Origin: Kiritimatiellia bacterium
GTDB taxonomy: Bacteria > Verrucomicrobiota > Kiritimatiellia > RFP12 > UBA1067
Assembly (NCBI GenBank): GCA_045617985.1
Contig: JAZLJP010000052.1
Span: 10,327-74,326, forward strand
DNA: 64,000 nt
Reading direction: 5' to 3'
The translations under genes were made by a program, and so were the position numbers. The notes beneath the pieces were generated by a model, which searched no databases, had not been told where the DNA came from, and worked only from the letters and a program-made list of their open reading frames with translations. This document shows, one piece after another, positions 23,583 to 41,169 of this stretch. Each line of letters begins with the position of its first letter. The stretch's first letter is position 1.

Positions 23583-23662
23583 CCGGTACGACGAGCGTTC
23601 TGTGAACAGGATCGGCTTGATGCGCATTTTATGGTATTGTCGCAAATTTGGAGATGGCGAAA

Positions 23663-23764
23663 CTGGGACAACGGGCATCTTGCCCGTTGGGAATCCACCC
23701 CGCAACGGGCGGGACGCCCGTTGTCCCAGCTTTCCAAGTTTTGCGCCGACGGGCGGGACACCCG
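23663..23764. repeat. REP-like palindrome doublet plus a third degenerate copy
   Basis: caacgggca-tct-tgcccgttg and caacgggcg-gga-cgcccgttg nested in outer inverted repeats ctgggacaacgggc...gcccgttgtcccag (23663-23729); partial gacgggcgggacacccg at 23748-23764. Confidence 0.75.
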
Positions 23765-37942: not shown

Positions 37943-38135
37943 AAACGAAGAGCATAAGGAAAGGAGAAAGGACGCCCAACCGAGAGGCCCGCACTTCCGC
38001 GCGGCCTGGAACCCGACAAGCCCCCCCCTTCAACCCCTCGTCCCCCTCCCATCCGCTTTTCAGGTTCAACAGATCGTCACCAAATCAAAGATCTCGATTA
38101 CCGAAGTCCTTCCACCAGCCGAAATCTCATCCCCG

Positions 38136-38166
38136 ATGCGAAAACAGGTCAGACCTGTTTTCGCAT
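38136..38166. repeat. REP palindrome copy 1 (overlaps the RAYT stop codon)
   Basis: atgcgaaaacaggtc-a-gacctgttttcgcat, perfect 15-bp arms; central base is opposite to copies 2-4. Confidence 0.9.
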
Positions 38167-39234
38167 GCCGACGATCCACGGACCATCCGTATTGAGCTTC
38201 ACCAGTACACCATTCCTCTTCATTTTCTCAATCGCACGGTACACGGTTGACGGAAACACCTCCAAACGTTTCGCCACTTCGTCCGTTCCCAACGCCGGAT
38301 CGAGGAACAACACCGCCCACACCTTCGATTCGACATCAGGGAAACGATCAGTCCCGTATTCCCCGCCGTTCTTAAACGAAACATACGCACTTCTGACCTC
38401 TTCGAGATGCGCCGCCGCCTGCATCACCAGAACCTCGTTCGTCAACGGATCGCAAGGCGCATCACAACCGGCCGCCCGGAGACGCGCGATTCCCTCAGCC
38501 CGGCTACGTTTGATATCGGAAAGCAGATCGTCAAGCAACGCGATATGGCACGCCTCCATTTGCGAAAACAGGTCTGACCTGTTTTCGCACACTTCGCCAT
38601 AGATGAATTTCATTCCTGCGATGGCCGTTTGATCGCCACGCCGGAACGCGGCGAAACTACTCCATGCGTATCCGTCGTAGCGATCAGTCATTGCGGCACA
38701 GATGGGATTGAGGTTGATGTAACCGAGGCGTTGAGCCATCTCCTTGAACACCATCTCAACCTTCCTGTCGATGTAGACGCCCTCCCACAACGTTCCGGTA
38801 TGTTTGTGACGTTGGTTGTATTCCTCGGTAAACCACTGCTTGGCTATCTTCATGAAGTTGCCAACGTCGTACATACGCCGACGCTGCCGACGCAACCAAA
38901 CGTCAACCTCCGACTCAAGGCCATCTTTCCTTAGCCGATTGAGTTGCACGGCCATGGACGCCGCCGCCGCCGAACCTTTGAGCACACCATATCTACGCAA
39001 CACCTCCGCCTCATCCAACGCCTCCGGCTCTGGCAAATATACCAGCAAGTGGAAATGGTTGGTCATCAGGCACCATCCCAGTAATTGTATCCCCGTAAAA
39101 TCCGCCGTCCGGCGAATGATCTCGAGGAATTCGTTACGATCTTCATCGTCAAGGATGAAAACCTTGTGCGCGATTCGGCTCATCAGATGGTGAACCGTAT
39201 CGTAAGATTTGACTCGATTGTTTGATGCAGACAT
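38149..39234 (-). mobile_element. REP-associated tyrosine transposase (RAYT, Y1/HUH) with C-terminal winged HTH
   Basis: VHHLMSRI; CLMTNHFHLLV (HUH); FMKIAKQWFTEEYN...GTLWEG; GYINLNP (catalytic Tyr); YAWSSF; C-terminal DEVAKRLEVFPSTVYRAIEKMKRNG. Confidence 0.88.
38561..38589. repeat. REP palindrome copy 2, inside the RAYT ORF
   Basis: tgcgaaaacaggtc-t-gacctgttttcgca; encodes CENRSDLFSQ in frame. Confidence 0.9.
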
Positions 39235-39287
39235 TCCGTCCTCCTTTTTGCCAATCCCCCGATCGGCAATAGCCAGAACACAACGAC

Positions 39288-39296
39288 ATTATATCA
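39288..39296 (-). promoter_or_regulatory. Extended -10 promoter candidate for the RAYT
   Basis: TGaTATAAT about 55 nt upstream of the ATG, with AAGGAGG RBS. Confidence 0.5.
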
Positions 39297-39328
39297 CATT
39301 TTTCCGCTTCAAGACCCTAAAAAAATAA

Positions 39329-39359
39329 ATGCGAAAACAGGTCTGACCTGTTTTCGCAT
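39329..39359. repeat. REP palindrome copy 3
   Basis: atgcgaaaacaggtc-t-gacctgttttcgcat. Confidence 0.9.
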
Positions 39360-39415
39360 CGCAATTCAGTAACAAAGGAACGACACCTCTGCCGGGTGAC
39401 GTACAAAGATACATT

Positions 39416-39444
39416 TGCGAAAACAGGTCTGACCTGTTTTCGCA
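39416..39444. repeat. REP palindrome copy 4
   Basis: tgcgaaaacaggtc-t-gacctgttttcgca; the 36-nt context catttgcg...cgcacac is identical to copy 2. Confidence 0.9.
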
Positions 39445-39454
39445 CACAAATTCT

Positions 39455-40219
39455 CTATTCCACACTCGCGAGCCAGTCGGCTTGGCGGAGAAGCTTGCGG
39501 CTGGCGAGGAACATCACGCGCAACGCACGGTACAGTATCGGCATCCGCCTCCCGCTTTCCATCGGCGCGCCCTCGCCCTTGAAACGCCCGCTCAAGGAGA
39601 CCTCATCCAAGAAATCCCACTCCGGCGCCGTCTCGTCATTGTCATAACGATGTTTTCGCCACCGTACGCGCCGCACGGTCAAATCCGCCACCTCCACAAC
39701 CTCCTCGACCTCCTGGCCGAAGAGCACCGTAAAAAGCGAAAAGCGGACAGAAGGAAATGCCGCCTCCCATCCGCTTTTCAGTTTCAACAGATCGTCATTG
39801 GAAAACTTCGAATCGGAATCAAGAACGAGAAGCACCTTCCCGGCCGACGAGAGCCAATCGATCAAACGCGCGAACCGCCGCCGGTAGACCTCAACGACAT
39901 CGTGATAGAACCGCCGATTTTCCGCCGCCAAAACATCGCAGTGGAAATCATGGAGAAACTCAAAACCCGTTGCCCGATCCCGATATTGGAATTTCCCGAG
40001 TCCCGCCCCCGCATGACAATTCGCAAGCCGCTCAAGATTCTTGAACACAAGCCATCCCTCTCCCCTGTTCCGAACAATTTCCAGTGCCGCCGCAAACACG
40101 TCCTCACGCCCCTGCAACACCCAATCAAAAGGCAAAAAAGCGGCCTACAATCCGCGCCGCTTCAACTGAATGGCAGAAGAACAAGATCCACCCAAAGAAA
40201 AACAAAAATCAACAATCAT
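39455..40219 (-). pseudogene. DUF1796-like putative papain-fold cysteine peptidase interrupted by an in-frame TAG
   Basis: ATG 40219: MIVDFCFSLGGSCSSAIQLKRRGL*AAFLPFDW...FEFLHDF. TAG at 40145-40147 is in frame with ORF 39455-40135. The SLG..C, PFDW and HDF motifs match my recollection of DUF1796. Confidence 0.7.
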
Positions 40220-40238: not shown

Positions 40239-41169
40239 TCACCCAATTCCCAATCGCCGACGCGTCGCCTCCACCTGCTCCCGCCGCTCCGCCTCCATCC
40301 GCGCCATATTCGCCCACTCTCGCATGATATTCTTGCGGAACAGAATCGTCGTATCAAGAGTAAATCCTCCCACGCAGCACATCATCCACAAGATGCCGCC
40401 GATGCCACCGGGAGAGAAAAGGGTTGCCTCTCCCATGTTTGTCACAAAAAAGACAGCCATCATCGTCGTCGTAACGAAATATTTTCGCTGCATGCAGATG
40501 CCGAAGAACGACGCGAGAAAAATCAAAAAACAAATCTCTCCCAAAATCCCCGTTTCACCCAGCACCATGACGGGCAACACGCCCTTTTCGACCGAAGCGG
40601 AAATCACGAATCCCTTTCCTCGCGTCTGTTCACGCGTATATTCCGCAACCTGAAACCCGCTTCCGATCAACGGATTCCGGCGGAATTCACGCAGACTCAT
40701 TGCCATCAACCCCATACGGCTCGAAGTCAAAGCCTCCGTCAACGACCGCTTATCGGCTGACACGTCCGACGTCTTTCGCGCCCATTCCATCATAGTACCC
40801 ACCCATCAACCGACGAAACCAGCGCCGCCATCAAAAACAGAACGATCCCCATGGAAGGCAATCGGTGCCGTCCCGTCCTGGACATTCCCCCCATCGCCAG
40901 ACAGAGGCCGATCAAAAGCGGTCCCGCGCGCAGTGAAAGCACAACCACAGAATTCGATTTCGGGAACAGTCCAGGATTGAGAATCACAAAAAACGGCATT
41001 AAGGGGAAAAAACAAGTGCCCAGCCCAATTTGTTGGTAATCGCACACCAAACGCCAGCAAGCACTAAAACCGGCGTGAAATACCCCTTCGTAAACCGGCA
41101 AAGCACAATGCCCAAGATCGTAAAGGCCAACATCTTCCCTGCTTGCTTATAAATATCAAGTTCGTTCAT
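40239..41169 (-). pseudogene. Broken paralog of the Wzy-like polymerase at 45200-46684
   Basis: N-terminal part (MNELDIYKQAGK...GPLLIG...SSVDGW) and C-terminal part (GTMMEWARK...SSRMGLM..EKGVLP..LGETG) both align to the intact paralog. Frameshift at A6 41007-41012; about 200 codons missing at ~40800. Confidence 0.8.

Follow-up and report, generated by a model that had tools for sequence, protein, structure and literature searches.

A RAYT-like gene with a winged-helix domain and copies of one hairpin at its ends and in its reading frame: a candidate REPtron in a Kiritimatiellia bacterium

REP-associated tyrosine transposases (RAYTs) and repetitive extragenic palindromes (REPs) are the best-known example of a domesticated transposase found alongside its non-autonomous repeats. 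Here we consider a 64,000-nucleotide stretch of DNA from a Kiritimatiellia bacterium (contig JAZLJP010000052.1, positions 10,327 to 74,326; hereafter the 64-kb window), in which a gene for a RAYT-like protein has four copies of one palindrome beside and within it. A description made from the letters of the DNA (the sequence-only reading) took this gene for a fusion of a RAYT to a winged helix-turn-helix (wHTH) domain that had been invaded by its own REP. Thus the locus raises two questions: what the palindromes are to the enzyme, and how one of them comes to be translated as part of it. We consider it reasonably probable, judging from sequence, a structural model, and analogy, that the locus is a REPtron, in which a single-copy domesticated RAYT-like HUH/Y1 single-stranded DNA nuclease-ligase is accompanied by its cognate REP hairpins.

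A RAYT-like enzyme and its four hairpins

The sole long open reading frame (ORF) through the region encodes a protein of 361 residues (coordinates of this and other features are collected in Table 1). Pfam Y1_Tnp matched it at residues 11 to 70 only (E = 1.2e-7; 32.3 bits against a cutoff of 23). Database homologs (n = 599) are nearly all 350 to 375 residues long and about 50% identical, and among their source names only three, from JGI, read "REP element-mobilizing transposase RayT." In an alignment of 119 sequences, the residues expected of such an enzyme are preserved: H60 and H62 of the HUH motif (N59-H60-F61-H62, at 39049-39060) and N176 and P177 are invariant, Tyr172, the predicted catalytic residue (38719-38721), is conserved in at least 90% of the sequences, and W150-E151 and W191-S192-S193 (the "SS" motif) are invariant or nearly so. 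Tyr172 lies in YINLNP (Y172-I-N-L-N176-P177), for which the family form is YI(H/N)LNP, and a three-helix insertion (residues 75-119) separates β3 from αC.

An AlphaFold2 model of the window protein built from the same alignment (pLDDT 89, pTM 0.77) was compared with known structures by Foldseek, which ranked first 4ER8_A, the E. coli TnpA_REP in complex with a REP hairpin (probability 1.0, TM (target) 0.66, E = 7e-4), followed by the TnpA proteins of ISDra2 and IS608. In the model, the Y1 core is followed by long helices at 219-254 and 267-289, a disordered loop (290-300, pLDDT 53), and a C-terminal winged helix. The last of these was also indicated by sub-threshold Pfam matches to TrmB, Fe_dep_repress, and HTH_24 around residues 300-345, by PDB profile matches to Lrp/AsnC, MarR, and Lrs14 (E about 0.01), and by Foldseek matches of the MarR and Z-alpha types; the wHTH domain was found in all family members. 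We conclude from sequence and model that the protein is best described as a RAYT-like HUH/Y1 enzyme, with its residues intact, fused to a C-terminal winged helix; on this fusion, Pfam, the AlphaFold2 model, and Foldseek bear out the sequence-only reading. A contig from an RNA run is identical to 38857-39010, which is weak evidence that the gene is transcribed.

We scanned the window for the palindrome GCGAAAACAGGTC-N-GACCTGTTTTCGC (written as GCGAAAACAGGTCNGACCTGTTTTCGC) and obtained four perfect matches (38138-38164, 38562-38588, 39331-39357, and 39417-39443), while allowing up to three mismatches added no match in the 64 kb and 100 dinucleotide-preserving shuffles of the window gave no match at all. 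Copies 1 and 3 form a perfect 33-nt inverted repeat, of the ATGCG...CGCAT type, on opposite sides of the gene, while copies 2 and 4 are direct repeats of the TTTGCG...CGCACAC type, identical at 36 of 36 nt (CATTTGCGAAAACAGGTCTGACCTGTTTTCGCACAC). On the plus strand, the central base is A in copy 1 and T in the other three. The ORF runs across copy 2 as GEV-CENRSDLFSQ-MEA (GEVCENRSDLFSQME) and ends as GMRKQV-TGA in copy 1, so that the earlier account of four perfect palindromes, the second translated and the first giving the stop codon, was correct in every statement about the sequence. As read from the sequence, five of the palindrome's six frames are free of stop codons, and in-frame copies would for this reason be tolerated more easily.

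How much of this arrangement belongs to the window, and how much to its relatives? We gathered the DNA of 16 distinct family genes, 46 to 100% identical to the window protein (the relatives spanning 46-78%), and mapped hairpins by a GGTC-N-GACC-like center with up to three mismatches allowed, so as to include imperfect ones. One or two hairpins lie 6 to 270 nt upstream of the start codon in 15 of the 16 genes (two upstream hairpins are found also in loci L040 and L117), and a hairpin overlaps or abuts the stop codon in 13 of the 15 genes for which this could be assessed, mostly with TGA in the loop. The protein alignment records the same feature, since the C terminus reads K-(Q/E)-V in 21 of the 119 proteins and K-x-G-L-T in three, the hairpin being translated in two frames. 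The hairpins share the apex AGGTC-T-GACCT, and this holds in loci that were retrieved by protein similarity and not by the DNA pattern; the remainder of the stem is specific to each lineage. Because upstream and stop hairpins recur across relatives at 46 to 78% identity, copies 1, 3, and 4 are the standard layout of the family and not an invasion. They also flank the gene, within about 1 kb, with one hairpin family, as expected of a REPtron. The image of a gene invaded by its own REP therefore fails for these three copies; only copy 2 is lineage-specific. Likewise, of the two translated segments suspected of being REP-derived insertions, the internal one of 10 residues is confined to a lineage and the C-terminal one is family layout.

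Beside the stop hairpin we note one variant: in L119:242-1435, which encodes the protein P0005, the reading frame continues through the 3′ hairpin in another frame (...GKTGLTCFPKGN).

Hairpins within the coding sequence

A translated hairpin inside the protein occurs in 5 of the 119 aligned family members, namely the window protein and its four closest relatives; the other 114 have the same architecture and no internal hairpin. Two sites are involved. Site 1 (residues 216-225), at the junction of the Y1 domain and helix 219-254, carries the hairpin in the window protein and in P0002 (locus L008), and the hairpin is absent there from the other 117 aligned relatives. Site 2 lies in the disordered loop before the winged helix, where P0003, P0004, and P0005 have an intact hairpin at residues 285-308. 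At site 2, the window protein reads EYGTDRFP and P0002 reads EYGADLFS, in columns that align with the hairpin peptide WENRS(N/D)L(F/L)S of the other three. We think it probable from this column alignment that site 2 of the window is a decayed relic of a second in-frame REP. In P0005, the linker after the Y1 domain has, in addition, about 24 extra residues where the window holds its internal REP, and the Y1-linker junction would therefore seem to accept insertions repeatedly.

The identity of copies 2 and 4 over 36 nt had been taken as a sign of recent activity. Locus L008, which was assembled separately, has the same four-hairpin layout as the window, and the two genes are 79% identical in nucleotide sequence. 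The internal palindrome lies within a 58-nt (19-codon) perfect run between them; at the gene-wide codon identity of 0.57, about 0.01 such runs are expected in the gene. Copy 2 is thus old and maintained rather than recent, because the copy and its flanks are identical in a relative that has diverged by 21% at the nucleotide level, and the argument for recent activity does not stand.

In both L116 and L117, a derived center, GGTCTAACC, is found in every copy, whether internal, upstream, at the stop, or downstream, and because of this shared center we read the intragenic and flanking copies as evolving in concert. Homogenization by the enzyme, gene conversion, or direct selection on the hairpin would each produce such concert equally well.

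The third of these possibilities leads to the alternative that survives best, in which the intragenic hairpins are selected, functional cis-elements on which the enzyme or the wHTH acts, as DNA or as mRNA, to limit expression or to rearrange the gene. The hairpins do stand at module boundaries (promoter, Y1 domain, helical region, wHTH, and stop); each of the five clade members has a hairpin in frame at one or the other of two domain junctions; the internal copies follow the hairpin variant of their lineage; and copies 2 and 4, as direct repeats with 36 identical nt, bracket the promoter and the Y1 domain. Moreover, copy 2 is perfect at synonymous sites despite the 21% divergence, a finding that fits direct selection as well as it fits homogenization, and that we count below among the points against our own reading. 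A required cis-element is harder to reconcile with the 114 of 119 members that lack an internal hairpin and keep their architecture unchanged, or with the decay that the copy at site 2 was allowed to undergo in the window lineage. In-frame REPs also occur in unrelated genes, both in our data and in those of Di Nocera et al. (PMC3733652), and homogenization by a RAYT or by gene conversion accounts for the same observations. We therefore regard selected cis-elements as possible but unlikely.

A dispersed hairpin and the case for a REPtron

The palindrome is not confined to this gene. The exact palindrome was found in seven contigs of four species-representative metagenome-assembled genomes (MAGs) labeled Kiritimatiellae, Lentisphaerae, or Verrucomicrobia, and no RAYT homolog was encoded in the seven MAG stretches that were fetched (up to 8 kb each). 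The 23-nt core was present in 96 metagenome stretches, only eight of which encode a homolog. The hosts of the isolated copies are rumen and gut bacteria of the Planctomycetes-Verrucomicrobia-Chlamydiae (PVC) group. In the runs that contain the window sequence, words of the core had a depth of 85 to 89 and the flanks a depth of 4 to 8, with at least five foreign flanks. Since the core is deeper than its flanks and foreign flanks are seen, hairpin copies exist elsewhere, in tens rather than hundreds. The claim that the palindrome is a REP extending beyond this locus is thus upheld by isolated copies in related MAGs and in metagenomes.

Several further properties concern the nature of the element. 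Its perfect stems are 11 to 23 bp long. Over 79 distinct copies, pair 12/36 is GC in 41, AU in 18, CG in 17, and unpaired in 3, and pair 11/37 is GC in 69, UA in 10, and never unpaired; compensatory changes affect outer-stem pairs 8 to 12. The covariation score was 0.206, compared with 0.097 in shuffled data (0 of 500 shuffles reached the observed value) and at most 0.103 with slid partners. Because the outer-stem pairs covary above both the shuffled and the slid controls, the element appears to be a hairpin and not a plain sequence motif.

Isolated copies inside other genes were counted only where Pfam domains were matched on both sides, a test of stop-free span being too noisy in GC-rich DNA. 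By this measure, a GT4 glycosyltransferase has an in-frame copy in the linker between its two Rossmann domains (seen in two samples, L107:1088-1110 and L063:2314-2336), and a further in-frame copy lies within the matched region of a radical-SAM/HemN-like ORF (L051:4076-4098).

A separate palindrome came to light in runs X1 and X2. At loose ends at 38135-38167 and 39416, several foreign flanks carry GGGGAC-N-GTCCCC, which resembles the TIRYT inverted-repeat motif GGGGWSAS and is absent from the window and from every fetched locus.

We propose the following mechanism for the REPtron. By analogy with the TnpA_REP proteins of E. coli, S. maltophilia, and Marinomonas (PMC8266576), the Y1 domain would bind the hairpin extruded in single-stranded DNA, Tyr172 would cut beside it, and the strands would then be rejoined. 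Cutting and rejoining would spread and homogenize the REP copies, and the winged helix would strengthen or sharpen binding, either to the conserved apex or to the palindrome as a duplex. Given how well the apex is conserved, the loop may be what the enzyme recognizes, as PMC8266576 describes for group 3 enzymes. Copy 2 would be a long-standing patch of REP origin, in frame at a domain junction and tolerated by the protein, held identical to the outside copies by the same homogenizing activity or by gene conversion, and a second such site before the wHTH would have decayed in the window lineage.

A number of observations weigh against this proposal, in addition to the synonymous-site perfection of copy 2. 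Activity on the REP hairpin is a prediction from fold, motifs, and analogy. To our knowledge, only three RAYTs have been studied biochemically, all of them short proteobacterial proteins. The best NCBIfam match of the window protein, NF047646 REP_Tyr_transpos, reached 40.3 bits, under its cutoff of 80, and a PDB profile search with the family profile found no TnpA by sequence; since the NF047646 cutoff was missed and the Y1_Tnp match is partial, we take the protein to represent a divergent lineage. The copy number is modest, with one to three exact copies per representative MAG, about 10 to 20 genome equivalents of the hairpin core in the runs, and no hairpin in this 64-kb window beyond the RAYT locus; classical REP systems have hundreds of copies. 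The foot of the hairpin is GTGC in copies 2 and 4 and ATGC in copies 1 and 3, and so departs from the canonical GT[AG]G, without which the RAYTs examined to date do not cleave (PMC8266576); among the relatives, the feet are GTGG (16), GTGA (16), CTGG (14), and others, with GTAG in L009. Finally, the nearest relatives without the site 1 hairpin are just two residues shorter there, and for this reason copy 2 is not a clean insertion. The proposal of a self-insertion tolerated in frame thus stands as regards frame and lineage specificity; it does not stand as regards a clean insertion or, as set out below, novelty (PMC6006769).

The region upstream of the gene bears on a different view of the palindromes. 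Read along the gene strand, copy 3 runs into TTATTTTTTTA, a combination that is scored as terminator-like; the T-run is kept in L008. An extended -10 element, TGATATAAT, can be read by eye about 25 nt downstream of copy 3; a consensus promoter scan of the upstream region returned no full -35/-10 promoter. The motif TGnTATAAT is kept at the equivalent place in L008, L119, and L040, and in L013 and L121 it lies just upstream of the hairpin, which thus opens the 5′ untranslated region (UTR). Nearer the start codon, the arms of a 5′UTR stem-loop are identical in L008, at 79% nucleotide identity, with a different loop, and this element may serve in translational control. In IS200, a hairpin upstream of the gene is a terminator against read-through and a 5′UTR stem lies near the ribosome binding site; the arrangement in the window recalls both. 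Copy 3 with its T-run probably shields the gene from read-through out of the upstream ORF, and the promoter-proximal hairpins, together with the stop hairpin, probably dampen expression. The palindrome is placed where a winged-helix dimer could serve as an operator-binding repressor. Autoregulation, which the sequence-only reading had raised, is plausible because the juxtaposition of hairpin and promoter or 5′UTR is conserved.

Taken to its limit, this becomes a rival explanation, in which a winged-helix regulator, acting as a dimer, would use the duplex palindromes as its operators, the Y1 domain would have no bearing on them, and the locus would be a transcription factor with its sites and no REP system. 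Perfect dyad symmetry with a conserved center, a position adjoining the promoter or within the 5′UTR in most family loci, and a wHTH in all members are what it would predict. Nonetheless, we give it little credence. The outer stems vary between loci yet stay complementary, unlike a fixed contact between protein and duplex; copies occur at the stop codon, within ORFs, and scattered with no homolog nearby; the HUH and Tyr residues are invariant in the 119 sequences (Y172 itself in at least 90%); and the core fold is that of the hairpin-binding TnpA_REP.

Still less credence is due to the view that gene and hairpins form an autonomous insertion sequence (IS) of the IS200/IS605 type that arrived recently at the edge of a polysaccharide locus. 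The transposases of this group (IS608, ISDra2; 2VJV, 2XM3) share the catalytic fold and recognize subterminal hairpins in single-stranded DNA, hairpins lie on both sides of our gene, many homologs are found on contigs of 1.1 to 1.6 kb, and the locus, at a GC boundary, has a 38-nt direct repeat on either side. However, the short contigs end within palindromes, which are the repeated part; four homologs (P0063, P0114, P0032, and P0097) each lie in one conserved gene neighborhood across several samples; the tyrosine motif is Y---NP of class 2 (RAYT) and not the Y---Q of IS200 (PMC6006769); no tnpB-like ORF adjoins the gene; isolated hairpins are far more numerous than gene copies; and IS200/IS605 elements make no target duplications, the 38-nt repeat being a fragment of a neighboring gene. 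We conclude that the homologs behave as domesticated single-copy RAYTs rather than as insertion sequences. An apparent strain-to-strain difference downstream of P0097 was rejected, as the gene calls differ while the DNA is identical.

Lastly, palindromes near the k-mer size do break short-read assemblies, but an assembly artefact is very unlikely as the source of the clustered copies, to the point of being negligible, because contigs of the gut-metagenome run X1 (possibly the same data source as the window) reproduce both junctions of copy 2 with zero or one difference (pieces 38324-38591, 38562-38605, and 38576-38700), the separately assembled L008 and a dozen more distant loci keep the layout, and the reading frame is intact through copy 2; the artefact that had been named as a caveat is thus contradicted.

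Table 1. Positions of the RAYT-like gene, its domains, the hairpin copies, and associated elements in the 64-kb window.
Feature	Position	Strand	Remarks
RAYT-like TnpA_Y1 gene, 361 aa	38149..39234	-	ATG 39234-39232; TGA 38151-38149; Shine-Dalgarno GGAGG 8 nt upstream of ATG
HUH/Y1 catalytic domain, aa 13-212	38599..39198	-	Predicted from invariant columns, model secondary structure, structural matches
Winged helix-turn-helix, aa 301-355	38170..38334	-	Three helices and β-hairpin wing; predicted from sub-threshold Pfam, PDB profiles, Foldseek, DSSP of model
REP copy 1	38136..38166		15-bp stem, 1-nt center; encodes terminal MRKQV, TGA in center
REP copy 2	38557..38592		In frame, encodes C216-Q225 (CENRSDLFSQ); 36/36 nt identical to copy 4
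REP copy 3 and T-run	39316..39361 (hairpin 39329-39359)	-	Terminator-like; 95 nt upstream of ATG
REP copy 4	39412..39447		180 nt upstream of ATG; orientation and 36 nt as copy 2
Candidate decayed second in-frame REP, aa 292-299 (EYGTDRFP)	38338..38361	-	From column alignment; loop pLDDT 53
Putative extended -10 promoter element TGATATAAT	39288..39296	-	From sequence and conservation across loci
Conserved 5′UTR stem-loop TTGCCGATC-GGGG-GATTGGCAA	39248..39269	-	9-bp stem just upstream of Shine-Dalgarno sequence
38-nt direct repeat, copy 1	38042..38079	+	Partner 39760-39797, 95% identical; pair brackets RAYT/REP segment

Known systems and genomic surroundings

Read as a REPtron, the locus can be set beside the E. 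coli TnpA_REP system (subclass 2.2, Bertels group 2; 4ER8; PMC8266576). The two share the HUH/Y1 fold, the Y---NP motif, and a gene, probably single-copy in the window organism, between inverted copies of its own hairpin; the hairpins of the E. coli system are dispersed in the genome, and those of the window family in related genomes. They differ in that the window protein has 361 residues, compared with 165, through an extra three-helix insertion, two long helices, and the winged helix; in that its hairpins are perfect, with a 1-nt center, no bulge, and no GTAG foot; and in that its copy number seems to be tens at most and its 3′ hairpin holds the stop codon. Di Nocera et al. 2013 (PMC3733652) had already listed tyrosine-transposase genes with a REP across their 5′ or 3′ end.

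Quentin et al. 2018 (PMC6006769) divided the TnpA_Y1 proteins into 12 subclasses, and in their account in-frame REPs inside the tnpA_REP gene are the hallmark of subclass 2.4 (Bertels group 4), and "double-foot" REPs are found in that subclass too. In-frame self-insertion, which had been put forward as novel, was therefore already known as a typical trait of that subclass. As in subclass 2.4, the window gene holds REPs with its frame unbroken, and double-footed hairpins occur in its family (GTGG...CCAC in 16 of 106 distinct copies; GTAG...CTAC in L009). Membership, however, is not indicated by the motifs: of NH[IFV]H, WQ, and YIxNNP, which characterize subclass 2.4, NHFH fits the first, but the window family has WE in place of WQ and YI[HN]LNP in place of YIxNNP. 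In addition, the window protein is 361 residues long, compared with a subclass median of 194, and has a C-terminal wHTH, and its in-frame REPs (residues 216-225 and 292-299) come after Y172, at domain junctions, whereas those of subclass 2.4 are inserted between HUH and Y.

The closer likeness is to the long HTH-bearing subclasses, which were stated to be without REPs (PMC6006769). With subclass 2.1, or TIRYT (PMC6006769, PMC3733652), the window family shares NH[YF]H, W[EQ], Y[IV]HLNP, SS, and a C-terminal HTH, and with subclass 2.3 it shares a β3:αC insertion of about 50 residues and a length above 320 residues. On motifs alone, we place the window family as 2.1/2.3-like. Both subclasses were reported without REP-like hairpins beside the gene, whereas the window family is REP-flanked. 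Subclass 2.1 also has terminal inverted repeats with GGGGWSAS, and the window protein exceeds its median length by 120 residues and has the β3:αC insertion. The HTH domains of 2.1 and 2.3 are of the Bac_DnaA_C, HTH_23, and HTH_28 families, while that of the window family is closer to the TrmB, MarR, and AsnC winged helices, and the hosts of the window family, rumen and gut PVC-group bacteria, are different as well. What is new here is thus the association of an HTH-bearing, subclass 2.1/2.3-like lineage with REPs; as far as we have found, a large, winged-helix-bearing, REP-associated lineage appears to be undescribed in the literature.

Outside the RAYTs, IS200/IS605 elements are set apart from the window family by its RAYT-class Y motif, its single-copy gene at a fixed place, the lack of tnpB, and lone hairpins that are commoner than the gene. 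The REPs in genes of Opitutus terrae and the RPEs of Rickettsia (PMC3733652) are likewise palindromic repeats tolerated in frame, in loops or linkers. They differ from the present case in that one host gene here encodes the presumed mobilizing enzyme and in that its internal copy evolves with the flanking copies.

These results would leave the general picture of REP biology unchanged. They would, contrary to the statement in PMC6006769, place an HTH-bearing enzyme in a textbook REPtron, in a family that numbers several hundred proteins from PVC-group bacteria of rumen and gut and that has kept its hairpin apex better than the protein sequence. Such a family offers a system for asking about the role of the extra DNA-binding domain, and the tracking of flanking copies by intragenic ones offers a natural experiment on the homogeneity of a REP family. 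Of note, we postulate only tentatively, as an unlikely extension of the REPtron reading, that the RAYT coding sequence is itself a substrate, its in-frame REPs being kept perfect by the enzyme or the winged helix acting on them in an HTH-bearing lineage that runs a REP system. If so, this would amount to self-targeting feedback or to a means of cutting and swapping gene modules, namely the promoter and Y1 domain between copies 4 and 2 and the wHTH between site 2 and the stop hairpin. It would also be the first HTH-bearing TnpA_Y1 lineage shown with a REP system, joining the "REP-less" subclasses 2.1 and 2.3 to the REPtrons.

The gene lies at a compositional boundary. DNA of about 63% GC gives way to DNA of about 50% GC near 38000, with GH20 and nucleoside-hydrolase genes on the high-GC side and acyltransferase, ATP-grasp, Wzy-like, and GT4 genes on the low-GC side, so that GC shift and gene content agree with the placement of the RAYT gene at the edge of a lower-GC polysaccharide locus. 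From 38000 to 62000, about 24 kb have 44 to 55% GC beside DNA of 60 to 70% GC. The products encoded there include a hexapeptide transferase, a sugar-transfer ATP-grasp protein, an AlaDH-like protein, an AMP-binding enzyme, a Wzy-like polymerase, and a GT4 protein, and the region is probably a horizontally exchanged polysaccharide locus.

The right copy of the 38-nt direct repeat encodes residues 113-125 of an ORF on the minus strand (39455..40135), and the left copy is an orphan fragment. The similarity does not extend past 38 nt at the DNA or protein level, and nothing else around the left copy can be aligned. We rejected a target-site duplication or a clear recombination scar, since the similarity ends at 38 nt. 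A run contig joins ORF-like sequence to a variant of the left copy (joint 39683>38045), and the repeat may reflect an earlier recombination event where the locus begins.

The beginning of the low-GC locus also holds what looks like a frameshifted membrane-protein gene, broken into three neighboring hydrophobic ORFs that do not share a frame (40239-40802, 40790-41101, and 40999-41169, together spanning 40239-41169 on the minus strand), which would fit the earlier remark on decay in this locus; a Pfam search of the piece at 40239-40802 gave no match. Elsewhere in the window, at 23660-23732, lies an unrelated inverted repeat of 30 nt whose arms, 13 nt apart, are 87% complementary (AAACTGGGACAACGGGC... 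/ ...GCCCGTTGTCCCAGCTT).

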